From the IMG/VR virus record IMGVR_UViG_3300044816_000098, positions 90,157 to 154,156 of that record: a stretch of DNA of 64,000 nucleotides; one strand, given 5' to 3'. Numbering within the stretch: the first letter of the stretch is position 1; every line of letters begins with the position of its first letter. The notes under the pieces are model-generated. The model saw only the letters and a list, made by a program, of their open reading frames with translations, ran no database searches and was not told where the DNA came from. Shown here piece after piece: positions 20,636 to 64,000 of this stretch. Source of the stretch: a virus. The position numbers and the translations under genes were made by a program.

Positions 20636-22363
20636 ATGCTGAAGTACGCCAGCACGCAGGTCATGTCGAAGGTTCTCGCCCCGGTGGGCGTGAGCCGCCG
20701 TGAGCTGCGTCGGTTCGCGCACCGGCACCAGTTCCAGTACGAGGTGCGGCCGGGGTTCCTGTACGTCCGCTCGCGGGCGATCTCCAGTCGGTGCAACGAC
20801 AACTTCGACGAGTTCCCCGCCGAGGAGCTGGAGAAGGCGTATGCCTCCTTCAAGGGCAAGCCGGTCTTCGTCAATCACGTGAACAACAACCACCACCGCG
20901 CTCGCGGCGTGATCATCGACGCCGCGCTCCACAAGGACTCGAACCGCGACGGCAGTCGAGACTGGTGGATCGAGGTCCTTCAGGAAATCGACGCGGTCCG
21001 CTTTCCCCGGCTGGCGAAGGAAATCCTGGCGGGCAATATCGCCCGGACCTCCATGGGCTGCGATGTGTCCCATTCCATTTGCAGCGCGTGCGGGAACAAG
21101 GCCACCACTCCGGCCGAATACTGCGCGCACATTCCGGCCTCCAAGGGAATGAAGCTCTACCGGACGACTGCCTCCGGGCAGAAGGTCGGCGACATCATCC
21201 GGGAGACCTGCTTCGGGCTGAAGTTCTTCGAGAACTCGCTCCTGGTGGAACCCCCGGCGGACCCCACGGCGCATTTCACTGGTGTCGACGCCTCCGGCCT
21301 GGACAAGGCTGCGGCCCTCTCCCAGAAGGAAAGGGCCACCCCTGCCATGCCGAGCCATACCTTGCCGGACCATGCCGCGCCACGCCTAGCCGAGACCAGC
21401 CACGCGGTGAACCAGCAGCGTACCGCATCGGTTGACGCTGTCTCCAAACTGGCCTACGGCGAGACGAAGGCTCCGGAGGACGTCGACACCCTCCGCGAGG
21501 ACTCGTGCCCCGTCTGCGGCGACCGCGACACCTATGACGGCGCGACCTGTGCGGTCTGTGCATATGTTTCGCCGCCGAAAATCTTCCAGGACCCGGATCT
21601 CGAACTCGCCCGCCAGATGGACCTGAGGAAAGACATCTCGGAGTTCAACGGTCAGCCGGGCCAGCCCGTCGATCCGAACGCCCTGGATGCACAGGGCAAT
21701 CCCATCCCCGGCGCCTCTCCCGAAGAGCAGGTCCCCGGTTCGCTCCCCGGTGAGGTTCAGGCCGAGGTGCAGACCGCTGACGGCTCCGAGGGTCAGATGC
21801 CGGGTCAGGACGGCCAGATGGCCCCGCAGCCGGGGGAACCGATTGACCCGGCCATGCTCGGACCTGACGGTCAGCCTCTTCAGCAGGGCCAGCAGATGAT
21901 CGGCCCTGACGGGATGCCTCTTCCCCAGCAAGGGCAGCAGCCCATGCTGGGTCCGGACGGTATGCCCATCGGACCCCAGCCGCTTCCTGCGGATGCGATG
22001 TCCGGTGACGGCCAGCCGTTCAACCCTGGCCCGAACGAGCCCCAGGGACCCGGTGGTCCGGAACAGCCTCTCGGACCCGAGGACCTGGACAGCGACGGTC
22101 AGGTGCCCAACCCGGAAGCCGGACAGGGTGTACCGGGCACTCCCGAGGACGGTGTCCCCGACCTCATGTGCCCCGCCTGCGGATTCACCGCCGACGCCAC
22201 TCAGCCCGTCTCCGTCGACATGGACACGGCCAACCTCCCGGACGCGGGAGTGGCCACCCAGGACGGAGTAGCGGCCGGGGATGTCTGCCCGAACTGCGGC
22301 ACGGGACTGTTGCTCAGCCCGGCTGAGGTCCAGGGCGAAGCCTCCGTTCCCGTCACCGTGTAG
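20636..22363 (+). CDS. capsid maturation (prohead) protease with Pro/Gln-rich, Zn-ribbon C-terminal extension
   Basis: GKPVFVNH, TSMGC and FFENSLLVEPPAD motifs. Confidence 0.85.
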   Translation: MLKYASTQVMSKVLAPVGVSRRELRRFAHRHQFQYEVRPGFLYVRSRAISSRCNDNFDEFPAEELEKAYASFKGKPVFVNHVNNNHHRARGVIIDAALHKDSNRDGSRDWWIEVLQEIDAVRFPRLAKEILAGNIARTSMGCDVSHSICSACGNKATTPAEYCAHIPASKGMKLYRTTASGQKVGDIIRETCFGLKFFENSLLVEPPADPTAHFTGVDASGLDKAAALSQKERATPAMPSHTLPDHAAPRLAETSHAVNQQRTASVDAVSKLAYGETKAPEDVDTLREDSCPVCGDRDTYDGATCAVCAYVSPPKIFQDPDLELARQMDLRKDISEFNGQPGQPVDPNALDAQGNPIPGASPEEQVPGSLPGEVQAEVQTADGSEGQMPGQDGQMAPQPGEPIDPAMLGPDGQPLQQGQQMIGPDGMPLPQQGQQPMLGPDGMPIGPQPLPADAMSGDGQPFNPGPNEPQGPGGPEQPLGPEDLDSDGQVPNPEAGQGVPGTPEDGVPDLMCPACGFTADATQPVSVDMDTANLPDAGVATQDGVAAGDVCPNCGTGLLLSPAEVQGEASVPVTV

Positions 22364-53740: not shown

Positions 53741-56545
53741 GTGGCACGAGCCCATCTGTTCCGACCGATCACCGATCGTGAAGGCAACCTGCTCTACAAC
53801 GCGACTGTGACCGTTCGTGAGACCAACTACGCGGTGGCCATCGGGCAGCCGCTGTACGCGTCCGCCACGGGGAGCACGGTGCTCGACAACCCCTTCGTGG
53901 CCCCGAACGGGGTGATCGACTTCTGGTTGGACACAGCTCAGCGGGTGTCGATCCTCGTCGAGGCCGAGGGGGAGCAGGCGATCCTGGCCTACCTCGATGC
54001 CTTCCCGGCGCCGGAAGAGGTCGTCTCCTCCACCGCGCCGCTGAAGGTCACCAACGTCCCGACCACCTCGGGTCAGGTCCTGCTCTCCACCGCCACGGCA
54101 GGTGTCGTGCAGTGGGGAGACCCACCCGTCGGTACCGGCCTGACCCCGGTGGTCGTGGCGTCCTCGCAGAGCTTCAACACCGGCGCGGACCCGATCGGCT
54201 GGACCTTCACCGGGTCCAACAGCACCCACTCGTACGACCCGCTGATCCTGCCGCCCGGCACGAACTACCTCTACGCGCTGCACGGCCAGACCACGGCGGC
54301 CAGCGGGGTCCTGACGGTCACCGGACCTACCTTCACCCTCCTGGAGGCCGGGAGCCTGTCCCTGTGGGTCAAGAGCACCGTCCAAACCGGGGACACCTTC
54401 CAGGTCAAGGTCACCAACACCGTGCCGACCACCACGGTGCTGGGGACGATCTCGGAGACCCGGGACTGGGGCTTCTACTCGTACCCGCTGGCGGCGGGCA
54501 CATATACCCCCAAGTTCGTCTACACCGGCACCACACCCTTCACCGGTACGTCACATGACGTCTGGATGACCGGCTACGTGGCCCGCTACGGGGGCAACGT
54601 GCCCTCGCACACCCACGCGGGCGCCGGAGCCTCCTCCGTGGCCCTGGGGACCTCCTCGGTGGCCTCTGCGGCCTTCTCCACCGCCGTGGGCGCGACCGCC
54701 TCTTCGACGGGCAGCAACGCCACCGCCTACGGCTACGGGGCGTCCGCGTCCGGCAACAGCTCGCTGGCCGTCGGCACCGGCGCCATCGCCAACGCGGACT
54801 ACGCCATGGCCGTAGGCGCGGGTGCGGCGGGATCGGGAGCGGCCACCGCCTGGACTGCCGTGGGGTACAACGCCTCGGCGACCGGCCTGGAGTCCGTGGC
54901 GATCGGCAAGAGCGCTCAGGCCACGGCCGACTATGCCACCGCCGTGGGGTCCTCCGCCCAGGTGAACTCCGCCTCGGGTGTGGCCATCGGGCAGAACGCC
55001 CAGGCCCTGGCGGCCTCGGGTGTGGCCCTGGGCGCCGGTGCGGTGGTGGGCGCGACCCACATCAACTCGGTCGCCCTGGGCGCCGGAGCGACCTCCACCG
55101 GCTCGAACCAGATCGTTCTGGGCAACGCGGGCGGGATGACGATCATCCCGGGCTCGTTGCAGAACTACGGCCTGGTCTCGCTGGGGACCCAGGGGTCCCG
55201 AGTCGGCTTCTACGGCTCCACCGGCAACGTCCAGCAGACGGTCAACGGCTCCGACGACGGCAACGTCACCCTGCGGACCCTGACCACGGCCCTGGCCAAC
55301 ATGGGGCTGATCGTCAACAACTCGATCCAGCAACCGGCGCAGTTCCGCAACCCGGTCGGGATCATCGACTACTTCTACCACCAGGATCCGGCGGACGGCA
55401 CGCTGGGCAACGCGGACTTCGACTACCGGCCGTACACCTACGCGCCGCTGGCCTTCTCCTCGAACACCCCGTACCCGGCCGGACCCCAGTGGTCGGTGGG
55501 TACGGACCACAACGCGTACAAGGGCCTGGCCACGGGCCTGGGCGCCATGAAGAACATGTACACGCCGAAGCAGACGTCCGTCTTCGTCACGACCTTCACC
55601 GGCACCGGCAACAAGGTCTGCATCGCCGTGCGGCACACCGGCCAGACGGACAGTTCGGCGGCGGCCGGGTACCTGATCATCGACCAGGCCGCGAACACCA
55701 TCGCCTTCGCGACCAAGGCCGCCGGAGCCCTGTCGAATGTCTACACCGTGGCGGGCGGCAACTCGGTCTCGCTGGCCACCTTGCCGTACACCCTCTTCGA
55801 CGGCCTGGCCCACGGCCACATGATCACGGTGTCCGGCAACTACGTGATGTACGCGGACAGCTTCCAGACGCCCTTCTTCACCCCGGTCTTCTTCTACGAC
55901 CCGGCCCTGAACGCCACGGGCACGTATGTGGGGATCGACGTCAACGCCACCACGACGAAGTTCAACTACCTCGCCTTCCTGCCGCCGCACAGCTTCGACA
56001 ACTTCCGGGTCACCGGCGCTCTGTCGAACGCCCCGACGAGCGAGCCGTGGTGGCCGGTGAACTCCGGTGCGGGTGCAGCGAGCACGGTCTCCGTGGCGGG
56101 CAATCTCCAGATCACCGGGGCCTCCGGCGGATACTCGCTCAACTACATCCTGACGACCAACAACTCGGACCTGAAGGCCGTTCGCACGAAGTGGGGCGCC
56201 GGTACCCCGACCACCGCCATGGGCATGATCCTTTGCTACGTGGACCCCAACAACTACTACTTCTGCAACAACAGTCAGGTCCTGCGGGTGCTGGCCGGGG
56301 TCACCACCACACTGGCCACCTACTCCAGCAACATGGTGGCCACAGACCTGATGCTGGTCACCCATACGGCCGTAGGAGGCATTCAGGTCTCCCGCAACGG
56401 CGTGGTGGTGGCGACCACCTCCGACACTTCTCCAGCCATGCTCGCGAGCAATCGGTTCGGTCTGGGTGTGCGCGGCGTCGGTGTCGCGAACTTCGCGTAC
56501 TTCTGGGTGGCGGACAACTACAACGCCGGGGTGATCTACAAGTGA
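53741..56545 (+). CDS. tail fiber protein with YadA-head-type repeats and lectin-like domains
   Basis: N-terminus paralogous to 52912; 14-aa repeats. Confidence 0.75.
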   Translation: MARAHLFRPITDREGNLLYNATVTVRETNYAVAIGQPLYASATGSTVLDNPFVAPNGVIDFWLDTAQRVSILVEAEGEQAILAYLDAFPAPEEVVSSTAPLKVTNVPTTSGQVLLSTATAGVVQWGDPPVGTGLTPVVVASSQSFNTGADPIGWTFTGSNSTHSYDPLILPPGTNYLYALHGQTTAASGVLTVTGPTFTLLEAGSLSLWVKSTVQTGDTFQVKVTNTVPTTTVLGTISETRDWGFYSYPLAAGTYTPKFVYTGTTPFTGTSHDVWMTGYVARYGGNVPSHTHAGAGASSVALGTSSVASAAFSTAVGATASSTGSNATAYGYGASASGNSSLAVGTGAIANADYAMAVGAGAAGSGAATAWTAVGYNASATGLESVAIGKSAQATADYATAVGSSAQVNSASGVAIGQNAQALAASGVALGAGAVVGATHINSVALGAGATSTGSNQIVLGNAGGMTIIPGSLQNYGLVSLGTQGSRVGFYGSTGNVQQTVNGSDDGNVTLRTLTTALANMGLIVNNSIQQPAQFRNPVGIIDYFYHQDPADGTLGNADFDYRPYTYAPLAFSSNTPYPAGPQWSVGTDHNAYKGLATGLGAMKNMYTPKQTSVFVTTFTGTGNKVCIAVRHTGQTDSSAAAGYLIIDQAANTIAFATKAAGALSNVYTVAGGNSVSLATLPYTLFDGLAHGHMITVSGNYVMYADSFQTPFFTPVFFYDPALNATGTYVGIDVNATTTKFNYLAFLPPHSFDNFRVTGALSNAPTSEPWWPVNSGAGAASTVSVAGNLQITGASGGYSLNYILTTNNSDLKAVRTKWGAGTPTTAMGMILCYVDPNNYYFCNNSQVLRVLAGVTTTLATYSSNMVATDLMLVTHTAVGGIQVSRNGVVVATTSDTSPAMLASNRFGLGVRGVGVANFAYFWVADNYNAGVIYK

Positions 56546-58935
56546 CGGCACGCTGCCACCTGCATCTTCCGATCACCAACTCCGCCGGGGTGGTGTTTCC
56601 CTACGCCACGCTGGAGTTCTTCGACTTCACCACCGGCGCCCCGAGCACCGAGCCGATCTTCGTCCAGGCCCTCGGCGGCAACGCGGTCTCCACGCCGCTG
56701 TTCTGCGACCCGGCGGTCATCGACGTCTGGACGGACAACCCGGTCCGGTTCAAGATCGTGGCCACAGTGCAGGGCAACGTCCGGATCCAGCTCGATGGCG
56801 TCGACATGCTCCCCGAGCCGACGTCGATGATGCAGGCCCCGGCCCACATGCGGGTCACCGAGCCCCCGAACACCGCGCTGAACACCGAGGTGCTGATGTC
56901 CTCGCTGCCCGGGGAGGCCGCCTTCCGTGTCGCCAACCCGCTGGCCACGCACCAGCATGAAGGTGACTCAGTAGGTTCGGTGGTCCTCACCGGCGAGGAC
57001 GCGACCGACTTCAACCCGTATCAGTCGTGGCTCGGCTACCACGCGGGGGAGAACGTCTCGGCATACTCGCCCGCTTCCTCGGCACTGGGTCCGCACGCGG
57101 ACGTCCAGGGCGCCAACGCGACCATCGTGGGCATCGGCCAGATCATCACGCAGACGTCCAGTGGCCTGGCCGGGGACATGGCCACCGTGCTCTCCAGCGA
57201 GGACGGGACGGCTGCCCAGGGGTCCACCACCATCGGCGCAGCCAACATCACCGCCCAGGGCCGCAACGTCACCGTGGTGGGCTCCCTGAACGGGACCTCC
57301 TCGCCCGGTTCGACTCCTGACGGCACGGTCGTGGTGGGCCAGGGCAGCGTCCTGGGGGCCGCTGGAGCGGTGAAGATCGGGCCGAACCATCCGGCCTCCA
57401 CGGCGGGCGCGAACAACGTCTCGATCGGCAACGCCAACGTCGCCCAGAGCAACGGTCTGCCGTGGGCCGGGGCCCAGAACCCGATGGCCATGGGGACCAA
57501 CACCACGCTGGCCGGAGACCCCTCCACGGCGCTCTCCTCGGACGACTGGTTCGGTGGAGTGGGTCCGCTGGCCCTGGGGGTCAACAGCACCGCCTTCAGC
57601 CCCTCCCTGGGCACCCTGTCCGGCGCCGCCGCTACCCAGATGCTGCTGGCCGTGGCCGGGGACGTGGTGGTCAATGGACAGAGGACCTACCTGGGGACCA
57701 CCACCACGCTGGGCTTCTACGGGACGGTCGGCATCGTCCGGCCGAAGATCCCGTACGACGCGGGAGACGTGGTCAACACCCAGGTCACCTCGCTGTGCCA
57801 GGCCCTGGCCAAGATCGGGCTGATCTACACCAACGACGTACCGGTGCTGTCCGAGTCCGGGACCCACACGGACGGCGCCGCGCTGGAGTTCGCCGAGACC
57901 GGCCAGGCGTTGCAGTGGAAGCTTCCCGTGGCCTCTCCGGCCTACCGGGCAACCAATCCCTTCACGATCGCCTCCAACAAGGTGGTGCTGAACGCGGCCA
58001 ACGGCCCGTTCCCGACCCGGGGCGTGAGCGCGCTCTACTCCGGGAGCCTGCCGGACGTGAGCGTGAAGGGCCGGTTCACCTACAACCCGACCGGCACGAA
58101 CCTGTGCACGAATGGCGAGTTCGGGACGGACACCTCCGGCTGGGCCGGGTACGACTCCGGCGCCACGATTGCCAGGGACACCACGAAGGCGAAATACGGA
58201 CTCGCCTCTCTGAAGATCACCCCCGGTGGATCGAATGTCGCGGTACGAGCGGCATTCACCCTGAACGGCCAGACGACTGGTGCACAATTCAACTTCTCGG
58301 CCTACGTGATGCCGACGAGCAGTCGGAATGTGCGGATCAGTATCGACGGGTTCACCGCTGGGAACGTCTTTTCGAGCACCATCGGATCAACCAACATCGT
58401 TCTGACTCCGAACGTATGGACCCGCATTTCGGTATCCGGCACTGTGCTGGCCGGGGCCCCCAACCTCCGCTTCGTCGTGGGCTATCAGGACGCCACCAAC
58501 GTGCCCGTGGGGGAGACCCTGAACGTGGACGCGGCCCAGATCGTCTCCGGGGTCACCCTGATGCCGTACGTGGACGCGGGCGGGTACCACCCGGACGATC
58601 TCCACACCGGACTGATGTTCCGGACCTACAACGCGCAGTCCGTGGTGCTGGGTCTGACGCAGGCCGTGGTGACCGGATATGTGGTCGGACGCACCTCCGT
58701 GTATTCGATGACGGACAACACGATCGGCTCAACTGTGGCGACCTTGAGCGCACAGCCTGCGACGGGGGATCTGTTGCAGGCAGACTGCAATGGGACGAGC
58801 GTGACGATCCGCAAGAACGGAACTTCGGTAGCTACTTTCACGGACAGCACCCTGAACACCCGTGTGAAGCACGGATTCAAGGTCTGCCCGAGCACTTCTG
58901 CCTACGCATTCCAGGTCTACCCCTTCGGGTTCTAG
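56542..58935 (+). CDS. tail fiber protein with carbohydrate-binding-like insert
   Basis: GTGA overlap; paralogous N-terminus; NLCTNGEFGTDTSGW CBM-like start. Confidence 0.7.
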   Translation: MTARCHLHLPITNSAGVVFPYATLEFFDFTTGAPSTEPIFVQALGGNAVSTPLFCDPAVIDVWTDNPVRFKIVATVQGNVRIQLDGVDMLPEPTSMMQAPAHMRVTEPPNTALNTEVLMSSLPGEAAFRVANPLATHQHEGDSVGSVVLTGEDATDFNPYQSWLGYHAGENVSAYSPASSALGPHADVQGANATIVGIGQIITQTSSGLAGDMATVLSSEDGTAAQGSTTIGAANITAQGRNVTVVGSLNGTSSPGSTPDGTVVVGQGSVLGAAGAVKIGPNHPASTAGANNVSIGNANVAQSNGLPWAGAQNPMAMGTNTTLAGDPSTALSSDDWFGGVGPLALGVNSTAFSPSLGTLSGAAATQMLLAVAGDVVVNGQRTYLGTTTTLGFYGTVGIVRPKIPYDAGDVVNTQVTSLCQALAKIGLIYTNDVPVLSESGTHTDGAALEFAETGQALQWKLPVASPAYRATNPFTIASNKVVLNAANGPFPTRGVSALYSGSLPDVSVKGRFTYNPTGTNLCTNGEFGTDTSGWAGYDSGATIARDTTKAKYGLASLKITPGGSNVAVRAAFTLNGQTTGAQFNFSAYVMPTSSRNVRISIDGFTAGNVFSSTIGSTNIVLTPNVWTRISVSGTVLAGAPNLRFVVGYQDATNVPVGETLNVDAAQIVSGVTLMPYVDAGGYHPDDLHTGLMFRTYNAQSVVLGLTQAVVTGYVVGRTSVYSMTDNTIGSTVATLSAQPATGDLLQADCNGTSVTIRKNGTSVATFTDSTLNTRVKHGFKVCPSTSAYAFQVYPFGF

Positions 58936-59010
58936 ATCGCGTAGACGACACATCGTTCCTCTGGCTAATATTCTCTTAGCAACAATTCCTGGAGAACCCC
59001 GGAGGACGCC

Positions 59011-59301
59011 GTGAGTAGCGTCGATGTTCTGGCCGCGCAGATGGTCATGCGTGCTCGCCAGGTCGAACGCGCCCTGCACGACCCCGGTCCGTGGATGGTG
59101 CGCGCAGACGGACAGGACTACCCGACCCGCAAGGTCATCGGTGAGGACCACGTCACTTTCTTCTCGCTCGTCGACCTTCCGTGGCCCGGCGTCGCGGAAC
59201 TGGTCTGCAACGACGACACGATCTCCGTGTGCCACCTGGACGATTCCGGTTGGATCCAGGTCGCCTGGGAGTTCCTCGTCGAAGAGCCGGTATCCGCATG
59301 A
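59011..59301 (+). CDS. hypothetical protein
   Basis: GGAGG RBS; possible promoter TAGACG-N18-TAATAT at 58942-58971. Confidence 0.6.
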   Translation: MSSVDVLAAQMVMRARQVERALHDPGPWMVRADGQDYPTRKVIGEDHVTFFSLVDLPWPGVAELVCNDDTISVCHLDDSGWIQVAWEFLVEEPVSA

Positions 59302-60869
59302 CCGCACCCACGATCGAGAAGCCCCCTCCCGCCGGATGGCCGGAGGGGGCGCTCTACTACAGCCCGAAGGGTTTGTACGGGTTCCAGGCCGACGACATCG
59401 CCCGAGCCCTCGTCCTGCGCGCTGAGGGCCGTCCGCATGCCCTGTTCTCCTGGGGCACCGGTCTGGGGAAGTCGCACGGCCTGATGGCCACCAGCGCCTT
59501 CACGATCGAGGACCAAGCGGCAGACGTCGTGTTGCTGATCTGTGAGAAGGTCAAGCTCCAGGAATGGCTGGCGGACTTCCAGCAGTTCACCCGGTTCGAT
59601 ACCCGGATTCACCACGGTCCGAGCAGGAAGGGCAAGCTCGCCAAGCTCGGGTTCCCGCAGGTCCTGATCAGCACGTATGAGACCTTTGCTACCGATCTGG
59701 CCGTCTTTGAGGCGAATAAGAACGACCGAGGCAAGCATGCCGTCCACGGATGGCTCATGGGAGAGTTGATCAATTCCGGCCTCAAGCCGATGGTCATCTT
59801 CGACGAGTCGGACAAGCTCTCGAACCGTAAGAGTCGTCTGTACAAGTCGTGGGATCACGTTCTGCGTAACTTGCGTAAGAAGTACCCGAAAATGCCGGTT
59901 TACATGGCTTCTGCGACCCCGATCCGCCGAGACCTGGAGGGGGCGTACAACCAGCTCCGGTTGATGGCCCCGGGCAGCATGCCGCTGGTCGGCGAGTTCG
60001 AGAAGTACTTCTTGCGCGGTCGGGACATCTATGGCCGTCCCCAGTACTTCGACCACCGGATCCCCGAGTTCGTGGCCATGGCCGCACCGCTCCTGCTGAC
60101 CAAAAGCAAAGAGGACAAGGACGTCGTCGACCAGTTCCCGAAGCTCACCGAGGAGAGCTTGTGGGTCGACATGGAAGGCGCTCAGAAGGAGCTGTACGAC
60201 TTCGTCGCGGATCTGGACGTACCTGGCCAACTGACCGCCCTGCGGCAGATCTGCGCCCACCCGGCGGCACTCATCCACTCGGCTCTGTATGGGGAGAGCA
60301 AGCTCGCCAAGACGCTCTACGCCGAACTGGGTCCGGACTACCTGCGGTCGATCCCCTCCGCGAAGACCGAGCGACTCGTGGACTATGTCCGGCCGATCGT
60401 GCTCAACGAGCGAGCCAAGGTGGTCACCTTCTCCTTCTACGGCCCGAGCGTGTTGCCCCTGCTCAAGGCCACGCTGGAGGCCAAGGGGGTTCAGGTCTGG
60501 GTCCACGACGAGGACCACGGTATCCAGGCGTTCCGTACCTCGAAAGAGCCCGGCGTCCTGCTGTGCTCCGATGCGGCCAGCCGAGGGATCAACCTTCCCG
60601 AGGCCGAACACCTGATCGAGTACGACATAGCGGGCACCTACGGGACCCGGACCCAGCGGATCAACCGGGCCAGCCGGATCGGTCAGGGCGGGCCCACGCT
60701 GACGGTCCGGACCATGCTGATCCGCAAGTCAGTCGAGGTCAGCCTGTTGTACGGGATGCTGCGGGGTCACGCGCAGTCGGACGCCCTGCTGGGGGTCGGG
60801 GTCACAGGGGACGAGTTCCTCACTGCCGCCATGCGCCGCCGGATCCTGACCGAGGGCATGCACGACTGA
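59298..60869 (+). CDS. SNF2-family (SF2) helicase
   Basis: GTGLGKS, DESD, SATP, RGINL and QRINRASR motifs. Confidence 0.9.
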   Translation: MTAPTIEKPPPAGWPEGALYYSPKGLYGFQADDIARALVLRAEGRPHALFSWGTGLGKSHGLMATSAFTIEDQAADVVLLICEKVKLQEWLADFQQFTRFDTRIHHGPSRKGKLAKLGFPQVLISTYETFATDLAVFEANKNDRGKHAVHGWLMGELINSGLKPMVIFDESDKLSNRKSRLYKSWDHVLRNLRKKYPKMPVYMASATPIRRDLEGAYNQLRLMAPGSMPLVGEFEKYFLRGRDIYGRPQYFDHRIPEFVAMAAPLLLTKSKEDKDVVDQFPKLTEESLWVDMEGAQKELYDFVADLDVPGQLTALRQICAHPAALIHSALYGESKLAKTLYAELGPDYLRSIPSAKTERLVDYVRPIVLNERAKVVTFSFYGPSVLPLLKATLEAKGVQVWVHDEDHGIQAFRTSKEPGVLLCSDAASRGINLPEAEHLIEYDIAGTYGTRTQRINRASRIGQGGPTLTVRTMLIRKSVEVSLLYGMLRGHAQSDALLGVGVTGDEFLTAAMRRRILTEGMHD

Positions 60870-60893
60870 GGGGCCCTCCGAAGAGGGCCCCTC
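60868..60893. terminator. hairpin between the convergent helicase and array transcripts
   Basis: GAGGGGCCCTC-CGAA-GAGGGCCCCTC. Confidence 0.7.
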
Positions 60894-61229
60894 CCATGCC
60901 TCGCCTTACCCCGCCAGGTCCCGCCGTACCTCGCCCAGCCTGGTCTCGCCTAGCCTCGCCTTGAACGCCCCCACTAGCGCCGTGAAGCCCTGATGGGGAA
61001 CCCTGCCTCGCCTAACCAGACCCCGCCTTGCCCAACCACGCCAGGCCCAGAACGTCCCCTCCAGGACTTTAAAATCCCGGAGGGGTACCTTGCCCTGCCG
61101 TACCTGGCCCTGCCACGTCCTGCCGTGCCAAACCGCGCCATGAACGCCCCCGCACGGGTATTGAGCCCCGTGTGGAGTACCTCGCCTCGCCATGCCGAAC
61201 CTCGCCCGGCCAGGACTTGCCTTGCCGTG
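60894..61229 (-). repeat. array of four (GGY-NN)n pentamer tracts with three 37-nt hairpin linkers; candidate guide-RNA array
   Basis: Tracts 60894-60963 (14 units), 61001-61050 (10), 61088-61142 (11), 61180-61229 (10); linkers 60964-61000, 61051-61087, 61143-61179. Confidence 0.85.
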
Positions 61230-61238
61230 CAGAACAGG

Positions 61239-61282
61239 ACCCTACGCGAGAACTTGCACTCCTGCAATGCCGGGAGTAACGT
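61239..61282. promoter_or_regulatory. overlapping divergent sigma70-type promoters
   Basis: Minus: TTGCAG-N17-TAGGGT (61267 to 61239). Plus: TTGCAC-N17-TAACGT (61254-61282). Confidence 0.7.
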
Positions 61283-61405
61283 TCTCCTCGTTCGGAAGTT
61301 CACCCGCAAGGGGGAGCCCAAGAGCGTGCGCCCGTAAGGCCAGGGATCGTTAGGCCGGAGGGAAGTCCCGGACCCCTGTCCGGGTTCGACAGCCAGGGGT
61401 GAGTC

Positions 61406-61524
61406 ACGATGTTGGCAGAGTGGCCGAATGCACCGGTGGAGGACGGCGATACGTCCAGGACCGGAGATCCGTGAGGGGTATCGCCCCCTCCTGGTTCCGT
61501 GGAGTTCGAATCCCACACGTCGTA
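61406..61524 (+). ncRNA. tRNA-like RNA lacking a canonical anticodon loop
   Basis: 7-bp acceptor ACGATGT/ACGTCGT; D-arm TGGCAGAGTGGCCGAATGC; T-loop GTTCGAATC; extended arms with complementary loops. Confidence 0.7.
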
Positions 61525-62190
61525 CAAGGGGTGCACGGCCCAAGCAGATCCCTTACGTGCGCTCCCCACCAGCGGATGTCGGAGGACTAACTATCCCTCC
61601 GGCTCCGGCCTCAGGTCTGGTCCTACCTGTGCTGGGCAACGGGACCACCCCTCATCGCCCGGCGGGCTTTACTCCTTTCACCGCCGGGTGGCCCTGGACC
61701 CGCGTGCTGGCTAGATTCGGCGGGTTTATGCACCAGGTTCCCTCTCCTGGGGGCCGGAACGAGGTGGGGGCAGACGGGCGACGTGCACACATCTACTTCG
61801 CGGTAGGTGGTCGTCTGTTCGACCAGCGGCGTACTCCGTGCCGTGCCCCGACTACGGAGGAGGGGGAGGCATTCAGCCGGGCCTTTTTGGGTGGGCCAGG
61901 AAGGATGACCGGCAACGAGGTAGCTCGCCTCGTTGCCGCAGATGAGCGACGAAGGCCCTTCCCGGTGACAGACGGGGGAGGGCCTTCCGTCTGTCCAGAG
62001 GTGTTCACGACGGCATCAGTGGGGATCTCCAGCCCTGGCCCCACCAGCCCTTATAGGACCTTCAGGAACCTCACCAACACCAGCCCCTCCTGGCCGTAGT
62101 TGAGGAGGTACTTAGGTAGGGGACGTAGTTAGAACTCCCCGTGAAAACGTGCAGGTCAGTGGCCTGCTACGGCGATCCCGGGAGGAGGGG

Positions 62191-62199
62191 TGCTATGAT
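62191..62199 (+). promoter_or_regulatory. extended -10 element TGCTATGAT
   Basis: TGn-TATGAT upstream of the 62380 ORF. Confidence 0.4.
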
Positions 62200-62379
62200 C
62201 TGCCCCGAGCAACGACAAAGGCCCCCACCTCGGTGAGGGCCGGTCGTCCGGAAGGTGCGTCAACACCAGACCGGATGCTCACTCCCTAGTGACTCACGCA
62301 ATCCCGGGAGCAAGCCCTGTATCACGCAACCGTACCAGGCGCACTCCGTCTGGTCATCTCGATCTCCGCCGACCGTTCC

Positions 62380-63222
62380 GTGTCGACGTCCTCTCTCCGC
62401 ATGGTGCACGGGATGATCCCTGCCGTGGAGGAGAAGCTCGCCCTCCACGACGAGGCGTACATCCCGCAGGCCACCGTTGCCGAGTGCACGGGTCTGGCGG
62501 CCAGCAAGGTGCTCAGCCGGTACTACCCCAAGCAGGCTCAGGAGCTGGGCATCGTCCTGCTCTCCCACCGGGGGAAGTTCGGGATGGTCGCCACCAAGGA
62601 CGGCAACTGGCGGGGGGAGTCCTCCCGCTGGATCCTGGACCTGGACAACTACACGCCCCGGGACATCCCCGTCATGGACCTGGAGACCGCCCCGTACTGG
62701 GGTGACCTGGACTACGAGGCCATCGCCGCCGCCATGAAGCCGACGGACGTCACCTGGGCCAAGGAGCCCGAGGCGTACCGGCTGACCATGGCCCTGCTCC
62801 ACCACGTGGGTCTGGCCAAGGTGAAGGTGACCCCCTACCAGGCGGCCGAGATCTTGGGGAAGTCTCGGGTGACCGGCTGGAGGACCCTGCGCAAGATGAG
62901 CGAGATGGGCCTGTACAAGGACGGCTGGGTGGACGCCTCGATCCTCTTCAGGGACGCGACCCTGGCCTACGACCACCCCGAGCTGACGGCCCGTACGAAG
63001 GCCCACCAGGCCCGCCGGTGGACCGTGTTCACCCGGGAGGGCTGGGAGGTGCGGGACGCGGCCCGGCAGTGGCGGGAGATGCTGCCCCGGATCAGCGCTG
63101 TCTCCCCGGTGTCCGAGGTGTTCGCCCGCTACGTGGGGCACCGGCATCTGGAGGCCACGGTCCGGTACGTGCAGGATGTGTTCTCCCAGCCGAATGCGAC
63201 CGGCCAGCCCGCCAGGATTTAA
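62380..63222 (+). CDS. winged-HTH DNA-binding protein (possible replication/regulatory protein; start uncertain)
   Basis: TPYQAAEILGKSRVTGWRTLRKMSEMGL wHTH pattern. Confidence 0.6.
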   Translation: MSTSSLRMVHGMIPAVEEKLALHDEAYIPQATVAECTGLAASKVLSRYYPKQAQELGIVLLSHRGKFGMVATKDGNWRGESSRWILDLDNYTPRDIPVMDLETAPYWGDLDYEAIAAAMKPTDVTWAKEPEAYRLTMALLHHVGLAKVKVTPYQAAEILGKSRVTGWRTLRKMSEMGLYKDGWVDASILFRDATLAYDHPELTARTKAHQARRWTVFTREGWEVRDAARQWREMLPRISAVSPVSEVFARYVGHRHLEATVRYVQDVFSQPNATGQPARI

Positions 63223-63238
63223 AAATCGTCATAGGGGC

Positions 63239-63266
63239 TTGCGTACTACAAGGATCCTTGTAGACT
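63239..63266 (+). promoter_or_regulatory. promoter TTGCGT-N16-TAGACT overlapped by palindrome CTACAAGGATCCTTGTAG
   Basis: Same palindrome as at 15990. Confidence 0.65.
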
Positions 63267-63301
63267 GGGCCATGCCAGAGACCGAGTGCCCAGGAGGCTC
63301 C

Positions 63302-64000
63302 ATGACGATCACCGCGACTGACCCCACCACCAGCACGCCGGACATGCCCGGCTGCTTCGCTGACGTCGAGGTCAACTTCGCTCGGTACCTGCCCGGGTAC
63401 GAGGCGCGTCCGCAGCAGCAGGCGCTGGCCCTGGCCATCGAGAACGCCATCCGGGACCGGAAGCACCTGTTCGCCCAGGCGGGCTGCGGTACCGGCAAGT
63501 CCCTCGGCGGAGTCACCCCGATGATCCTCGCGGCCATCAAGGACGGGAAGCGTGCGGTGGTCGCCACCGCGACTAAGGCCCTCCAGGAGCAGTACGCGGG
63601 GAAGGACATCCCCTTCATCCAGGCCAACTCCGGTGTCCCCTTCAAGTGGGCCCTGCTCAAGGGCCGCTCGAACTACGTCTGCCGGGCCAAGCTCGTGAGC
63701 GACGAGGCCGAGCGTCTGGTGGCGACCCCCATGATCAAGGCGGAGCTGGAGGAGAACCCGGAGCACTCCGGGGACTTCGAGCACTTCGCGATCTCCGTCG
63801 ACCCGATGGAGTTGGGTCGTCTGTCCACTGGGGCTAACGAGTGCCCCGGCAAATCGGAATGCCCCTTCGGCGAGATTTGCTTCGCGGAGAAGGCCAAGGA
63901 GGCGGCCCGGGAGGCCGACCTGGTGATCACCAACACCGCGATGCTCATGACGGACCGGGTGATCCTGTCCAAGACCGCCCACCGCGAGAGCGGCCCGGTG
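63302..64000 (+). CDS. DinG/YoaA-family Fe-S helicase (runs off the window; absent from the ORF track)
   Basis: GYEARPQQ, AGCGTGKS, ATATKALQEQ and KGRSNYVC...C...CP...C motifs; AGGAGG RBS. Confidence 0.9.
   Translation, partial: MTITATDPTTSTPDMPGCFADVEVNFARYLPGYEARPQQQALALAIENAIRDRKHLFAQAGCGTGKSLGGVTPMILAAIKDGKRAVVATATKALQEQYAGKDIPFIQANSGVPFKWALLKGRSNYVCRAKLVSDEAERLVATPMIKAELEENPEHSGDFEHFAISVDPMELGRLSTGANECPGKSECPFGEICFAEKAKEAAREADLVITNTAMLMTDRVILSKTAHRESGPV

Follow-up and report, generated by a model that had tools for sequence, protein, structure and literature searches.

A VIPR guide array behind a phage helicase gene, with two guides that may be directed at the helicases of related phages

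Four minus-strand tracts behind a helicase gene of a soil phage are identified from their sequence as four vrRNAs (T1–T4) of the phage's own VIPR (Viral Interference Programmable Repeat) system, forming an array distal to the vipr gene. The phage's own helicase does not qualify as a target under the published criterion (at least 80% identity along the entire guide), and the guides match the own helicase gene no more closely than expected by chance. It seems to us slightly more probable than not that T1 and T4 are, or were, directed at the helicase and act against related phages, with the caveat that the helicase was first chosen as the target post hoc in the original prediction. Taken separately, a helicase target appears evenly balanced for the 3′ part of T1, somewhat doubtful for T4, and improbable for T2. 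The reading code of the tracts is already published; the suggested class of natural target is new.

VIPR systems, first described in 2026, are built on a minimal RAMP protein, Vipr, and on vrRNAs of 9–16 GGY/NN units with a structured 3′ tail (2026 bioRxiv preprints). The NN pairs read double-stranded DNA, one base being skipped per unit (bioRxiv 10.64898/2026.04.26.720920); the skipped base is usually the codon wobble position, either strand may be read, and a PAM is not required. Every GGY of the guide is covered by Vipr subunits, which offer the NN pairs for base pairing, and transcription is silenced by the bound complexes; according to the structural preprint, there is one Vipr per unit, and the complex assembles and opens the R-loop in the 3′-to-5′ direction, beginning close to the 3′ tail. 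Natural targets are called at ≥80% NN identity over the whole ungapped guide; those known are satellites, prophage regulators, and other VIPR loci, and the published surveys report no self-hits at ≥0.8 (2026 bioRxiv preprints).

The genome (154,156 bp, 67% G+C) has direct terminal repeats, and the window analysed here comprises the final 64 kb of its virus record; positions below are those of the window unless the genome is named. The gene in question (59298–60869, plus strand) encodes an SNF2-type helicase of 523 aa (Pfam SNF2-rel_dom, 5.6e-13; Helicase_C, 2.3e-11). The majority of its homologues (n = 90) are encoded on phage contigs of 100–160 kb. The closest, P0004, shares 86% identity, and the sister clade (P0005, P0006, P0007, P0014, and P0015) 61–68%. 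Among cultured phages, megablast and tblastn found no close relatives (helicase identity at most 27%), and a scan of genome contigs gave no indication of the host, its only hits being two distant metagenome-assembled genomes. Relatives were sampled at the DNA level as 26 IMG/VR loci, 50 metagenome loci, and three whole relative genomes, the loci being retrieved with the helicase alignment as the query (a single helicase protein gave none); scores for P0004 and the sister clade are protein-level upper bounds.

The tracts lie 30–360 nt downstream of the helicase gene, on the opposite strand, and each consists of 10–14 GGY-NN pentamers followed by a G+C-rich hairpin. T1 (60962 to 60896, minus strand) has 13 variable NN units and a constant AT; T2 (61049 to 60998, minus) has nine variable units and a constant AG-GGTTC; T3 (61141 to 61085, minus) has 11 units, and T4 (61228 to 61177, minus) has 10. 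GGY is found in 40 of the 44 triplets, the deviants being GAC (three times) and GTC (once), and none of the four tracts has lost its GGY scaffold or its tail. Before the hairpin, the tracts end in GGTTC, GGTAC, or GGCAT-GGGAG; T2 and unit A1 of the main vipr locus have identical tails, and the GGCAT-GGGAG junction of T1 recurs in B3 and in relatives. The T1 tail hairpin (GGGAGGGGCCCTC TTCG GAGGGCCCCTC; 60870–60895, minus) immediately follows the stop codon of the helicase gene, and a second role as a bidirectional terminator is probable. Re-decoding of the four tracts exactly reproduces the NN strings of the original prediction. The 5′ units of T1, AA GA TA GA, read KDYE and are shared with the guide of a relative, G001; its 3′ units, CA TG GA AC GG CT GG AA GA, read QWDTGLGK plus one further unit, and a deviant GAC unit is located at the junction of the two parts. 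No Rfam family matched in 58000–64000, and a tRNA scan found none in the region. An initial interpretation in terms of G-quadruplexes or of a TRAP-like ring that binds RNA was abandoned in view of the Vipr match and the preprints.

The NN-x-NN-x reading with the wobble base skipped, as originally proposed, coincides with the published VIPR code. Because the tracts obey the rule of the preprints and the genome encodes a Vipr homologue, they are assigned to a distal vrRNA array. The homologue, P0001 (194 aa, genome 56264–56848), lies approximately 94 kb from the helicase-side array and matches the PDB entry 36pp_D, “SUSP1 Vipr protein,” over its full length (residues 8–191 against 5–189; E = 2.6e-34); a Pfam search with P0001 returned no hit, and a single-sequence AlphaFold model of it (pLDDT 31) was unusable. 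Nine further tracts flank the vipr gene, some with tails identical to those in the window, and the whole genome contains at least 14 GGY-NN tracts. Between both halves of the main vrRNA array there is a 192-aa ORF, P0002 (genome 57303–57881), with a coiled-coil-like C-terminus and no significant Pfam hit; it is a candidate vap accessory gene. A promoter-like motif (GGGGTTGTACTCC...GTAGTAGC) is repeated at genome positions 56193–56230 and 58180–58215, that is, ahead of the vipr operon and again after its terminator, and a weaker look-alike occurs upstream of T4 (approximately 61240–61290, minus).

The system resembles the type II VIPR of Escherichia phage SUSP1, composed of Vipr, Vap1, and vrRNAs (bioRxiv 10.64898/2026.04.26.720920, 10.64898/2026.04.26.720927), in its Vipr homologue, in vrRNAs of 9–16 GGY/NN units with a structured 3′ tail, in a one-nucleotide skip code aligned to the codon wobble with no self-targets at ≥0.8, and in having arrays both beside the vipr gene and away from it. 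It differs in the carrier, a large G+C-rich soil phage with terminal repeats; in the tails, predicted here to be simple hairpins with three junction types (GGCAG-GGTTC, GGTAC, and GGCAT-GGGAG); in the distance of 94 kb between the array and the vipr gene; and in the suggested target, which for SUSP1 is a satellite recombinase and here would be the essential replication-type helicase of related phages.

Originally, three of the guides were aligned with 59355–59576, that is, with codons 20–93 in the 5′ part of the own helicase gene. The T1 core matches at 13/14 (59451–59470) within the Walker A codons SWGTGLGKS (59448–59474, plus); the T2 core at 8/10 in KGLYG (59367–59381, plus); and T4 at 12/16 from 59553, or 13/20 over the whole guide, in KVKLQEWLAD (59547–59576, plus). 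The arithmetic is correct, and all three are in frame. The T1 core match is the only one of its kind in the window, the next best being 11; there are, however, 35 equal or better matches for the T2 core, which is thus at the chance level, and the 12/16 of T4 is one of five equal or better matches. Window-wide, 72% of the NN-order shuffles equal or beat the best segment of the four guides; within the helicase gene only, 4–11% do as well. Clustering of the four guides in one 300-nt bin gives a score of 31, with a mean best bin of 31.0 for shuffles, 55% of which reach 31. The near-matches, being at the chance level, therefore provide no evidence by themselves, and within the window their use as a signal fails the shuffled-NN control. 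Scored over the full guide length in the registers originally proposed, T1 reaches 15/28 (0.54), T2 9/20 (0.45), and T4 13/20 (0.65), and the nine 3′ units of T1 score 13/18 at the own Walker A site. No self-target of ≥80% was found for any guide tested, and the best own-genome identity (0.64–0.75) equals that of the shuffled-guide null.

Comparison with the helicases of relatives separates the guides. The prediction that relatives are targeted, and match better than the phage itself, holds for the T1 core (14/14, and a run of eight units) and marginally for T4 (16/20 vs. 13/20); it is not supported for T2 (p = 0.85), nor for the whole of T1, which stays at or below 0.71 in every helicase sampled. 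In 82 of the 90 relatives, Asp replaces Gly53 of this phage, while the closest relative has Ala; because of this Asp, the T1 core is perfect (14/14) in the DNA of many relatives, with 15 matching bases in an intein-bearing allele. A score of 14/14 is reached by 1.3% of shuffles in the helicase genes and by 5% in 1 Mb of the relatives' loci. At the protein level, QWDTGLGK of the sister clade gives eight perfect in-frame T1 units (0/400 shuffles, null maximum 13), the corresponding 16/18 being inferred from protein under an assumed favourable codon choice (CTN for Leu). Such a match, anchored at the 3′ end, fits R-loop assembly from the 3′ tail.

Other observations count against T1. The whole guide scores 0.64 in the DNA of relatives and at most 0.71 at the protein level (p = 0.08), below the published 0.8 cut-off. 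Its nine 3′ units reach 14/18 in ordinary relatives, the same level as the G001 guide on its own gene, where the match is presumably tolerated; in the DNA set, they are matched at skip 1 no better than at other skip sizes or when read backwards, and a search of 2.5 Mb at three mismatches yields two hits with them, one in a helicase and the other at an unrelated site. In a functional P-loop, GK is followed by Ser or Thr, with which the last variable unit, GA, is incompatible. An exact gapped-pattern scan of IMG/VR, along the lines originally suggested, yields more than 120 hits of the T1 core, the best full-length extension being 21/28, and five hits of the eight-unit run, about the chance number by a hand estimate; none of the five falls among the helicase relatives retrieved from IMG/VR, and the scan found no homologue of the T1 guide itself.

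T4 reaches 16/20 (0.80) at the homologous helicase site of four relatives (L129, L130, L177, and L186), compared with 13/20 on the own allele; the matching alleles are KNKLREWKDD or RNKLREWVED. The helicase site is the unique best T4 match across the whole 156-kb genome of another relative, G003, and the NKLREW site is also the best T4 match anywhere in the sampled relatives. A score of 16/20 is obtained by 4% of shuffles in the helicase genes and by 21% in all loci (p = 0.02 at the protein level), and exceeds the control level by only one match; a match to the invariant Trp90 is impossible, and one of the four single-base mismatches to the best target falls at an invariant Trp. T2 shows no signal on the relatives' helicases (p = 0.85, best at most 0.75), and neither does T3 (best at most 0.73). 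Of nine control guides taken from other parts of the genome, none gives a signal over its full length against the helicases; one reaches p = 0.04 on segments. Gapped-pattern scanning of IMG/VR gave no exact targets of T2, T3, or T4; when all guides of the phage were compared with the three whole relative genomes, nothing reached 0.8 except T4 on the G003 helicase; and no target of ≥0.85 for T1 or T4 was found in the DNA examined.

The relative G001 serves as a positive control. A single vrRNA was found on its 59-kb fragment; like T1, it follows the helicase gene immediately and is encoded on the other strand. The nine variable units of this guide, AT CG AA GA TA GA AA GC TT, read IRKDYENAF. 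The guide scores 18/18 on the helicases of L131 and L134 and 17/18 on that of L129 (19/20 also in L174, L175, and L177 when scored as 10 units), as against 14/18 on its own helicase (IRRDLENSF) and 11/18 on the homologous site of the present phage (IRRDLEGAY, 59922–59948, plus). With up to three mismatches, it finds only helicase sites in 26 whole records of relatives, and the backwards control finds none. Checked with other gap sizes, as originally proposed, the G001 guide has an identity of 1.00 at skip 1 only and of at most 0.78 at other skips; the nine units of T1 are no better at skip 1. Since the G001 guide matches other members at 18/18 and its own gene at 14/18, helicase-side guides against the helicases of other lineage members do, judged by sequence, exist, with carriers having diverged alleles. 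T1 and the G001 guide share their position, tail type, and the four KDYE units; owing to this, and to the GAC at the junction, T1 looks like a fusion of a KDYE-guide remnant with a nine-unit P-loop guide.

Several other explanations have to be weighed. The VIPR array might be real and yet have all four guides directed at elements outside the sample (satellites, prophages, or unrelated phages, for example), with the helicase matches coincidental, since G- and A-rich NN strings easily resemble the Gly- and Lys-rich codons of a P-loop. We regard this as a real possibility, but a less likely one than a helicase target. It agrees with the equally good matches of shuffled guides in the own window, the null-level full-length scores of T1, T2, and T3, the indifference of the nine-unit part of T1 to the skip size in the DNA set, the more than 120 exact hits of the T1 core seed in IMG/VR that never extend beyond 21/28, and the control guide with p = 0.04 on segments. 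It accounts poorly, however, for the perfect in-frame eight-unit run of T1, seen in 0/400 shuffles; for the position, tail type, and four NN units that T1 shares with a guide unambiguously targeting the helicase family; and for the best T4 match in a whole relative genome falling in the same gene.

Alternatively, T1 and T4 might descend from working anti-helicase guides rendered non-functional or retargeted by recombination (T1) and drift (T4), so that the matches are historical. The chimeric T1 with its deviant GAC at the junction and an unmatched 3′ unit, the four single-base mismatches of T4 to its best target, one of them against an invariant Trp, and the absence of any DNA target of ≥0.85 are what such decay would leave behind; yet all four tracts retain complete GGY scaffolds and tails, and the sister clade and the closest relative, P0004, are represented at the protein level only. 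We consider decay improbable. Self-regulation, named in the original prediction as the alternative, would have the partial matches to the own helicase gene tune its expression. The guides do adjoin the gene, and three near-matches lie in frame within its first 280 nt; but the own-gene identities (0.45–0.72) are those of shuffled guides, the published surveys contain no self-hits at ≥0.8 (2026 bioRxiv preprints), and it is precisely at the guide-read bases that the own allele departs from the consensus of the family. As no self-hit reaches 0.8, this explanation is hardly credible.

On the reading that we prefer, the helicase-side array would be aimed at conserved, codon-phased helicase motifs of related, competing phages. 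The nine 3′ units of T1 would read the Walker A motif (Q)WDTGLGK, and T4 would read NKLREWxDD; the first four units of T1 would be a remnant of a guide against IRKDYENAF, while T2 and T3 would have other targets. Where the guides read it (Ser51 and Gly53, Val85 and Gln88, and RRDLEGAY), the own helicase appears to have diverged, and would for this reason lie below the targeting level. The near-matches to the own gene would then be a shadow of the relation to the relatives' alleles, rather than sites of action.

It is rather unlikely, in our estimate, that the array and the adjacent helicase allele form a linked cassette of a weapon and a resistant target. If they do, the guides would silence sensitive helicase alleles of co-infecting relatives and spare the neighbouring resistant allele; the pair would spread by recombination, like a homing endonuclease or intein with its immune allele; and the chimeric T1 would record the origin of new VIPR guides by recombination between guides.

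More generally, a lineage of large actinophage-like soil phages keeps guide arrays directly behind the helicase gene, and at least one guide, that of G001, is perfect against lineage helicases while the carrier's allele is diverged. This pattern suggests that related lytic phages compete by silencing an essential gene of replication. The allele pairs also offer material for gauging the mismatch tolerance of VIPR and the sufficiency of a 3′-anchored partial match, both left open by the preprints. Solo or orphan vrRNAs directed against VIPR genes or satellites of relatives (bioRxiv 10.64898/2026.10.15.759431) are similar in being aimed at close competitors, in the carrier's own copy scoring below non-self, and in having codon-phased targets that do not permit escape by synonymous mutation; they differ in that the candidate target here is a helicase gene, with the resistant allele directly beside the guides. 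Class 1 CRISPR systems (Cas7 filaments) likewise polymerise RAMP subunits on a guide RNA, with bases flipped out regularly, whereas VIPR has neither CRISPR repeats or spacers nor known acquisition machinery, skips three guide bases and one target base per unit, and silences rather than cleaves.

Some further features were noted in this phage and its relatives. A solo vrRNA-like tract, S1 (21332–21401, minus; genome 111488–111557), with approximately 13 GGY-NN units followed by a hairpin, is located well away from the two arrays; it matches nothing in relatives, and no self-target reaches 0.8. Five relatives (P0008, P0022, P0023, P0052, and P0056) have helicases of approximately 860 aa with a LAGLIDADG-type intein domain (PF14528) inserted directly after the Walker A codons (WDTGLGKAE|PISEP..., e.g., G002 L128:8800-9000), that is, at the same P-loop codons that are read by T1. 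G002 (IMGVR_UViG_3300044691_000566, 160 kb) contains approximately 19 vrRNA tracts in at least seven places, three of the tracts being behind the helicase gene, and none with a convincing match to this phage, G001, or G003. In distant relatives, GGY-NN tracts occur just downstream of the helicase gene (L179:4647-4804, L188:4964-5032, L189/L190:4656-4904, and L219:775-843); these are on the gene's own strand, back to back and without hairpin tails, and may be the “staggered arrays” of the preprint.
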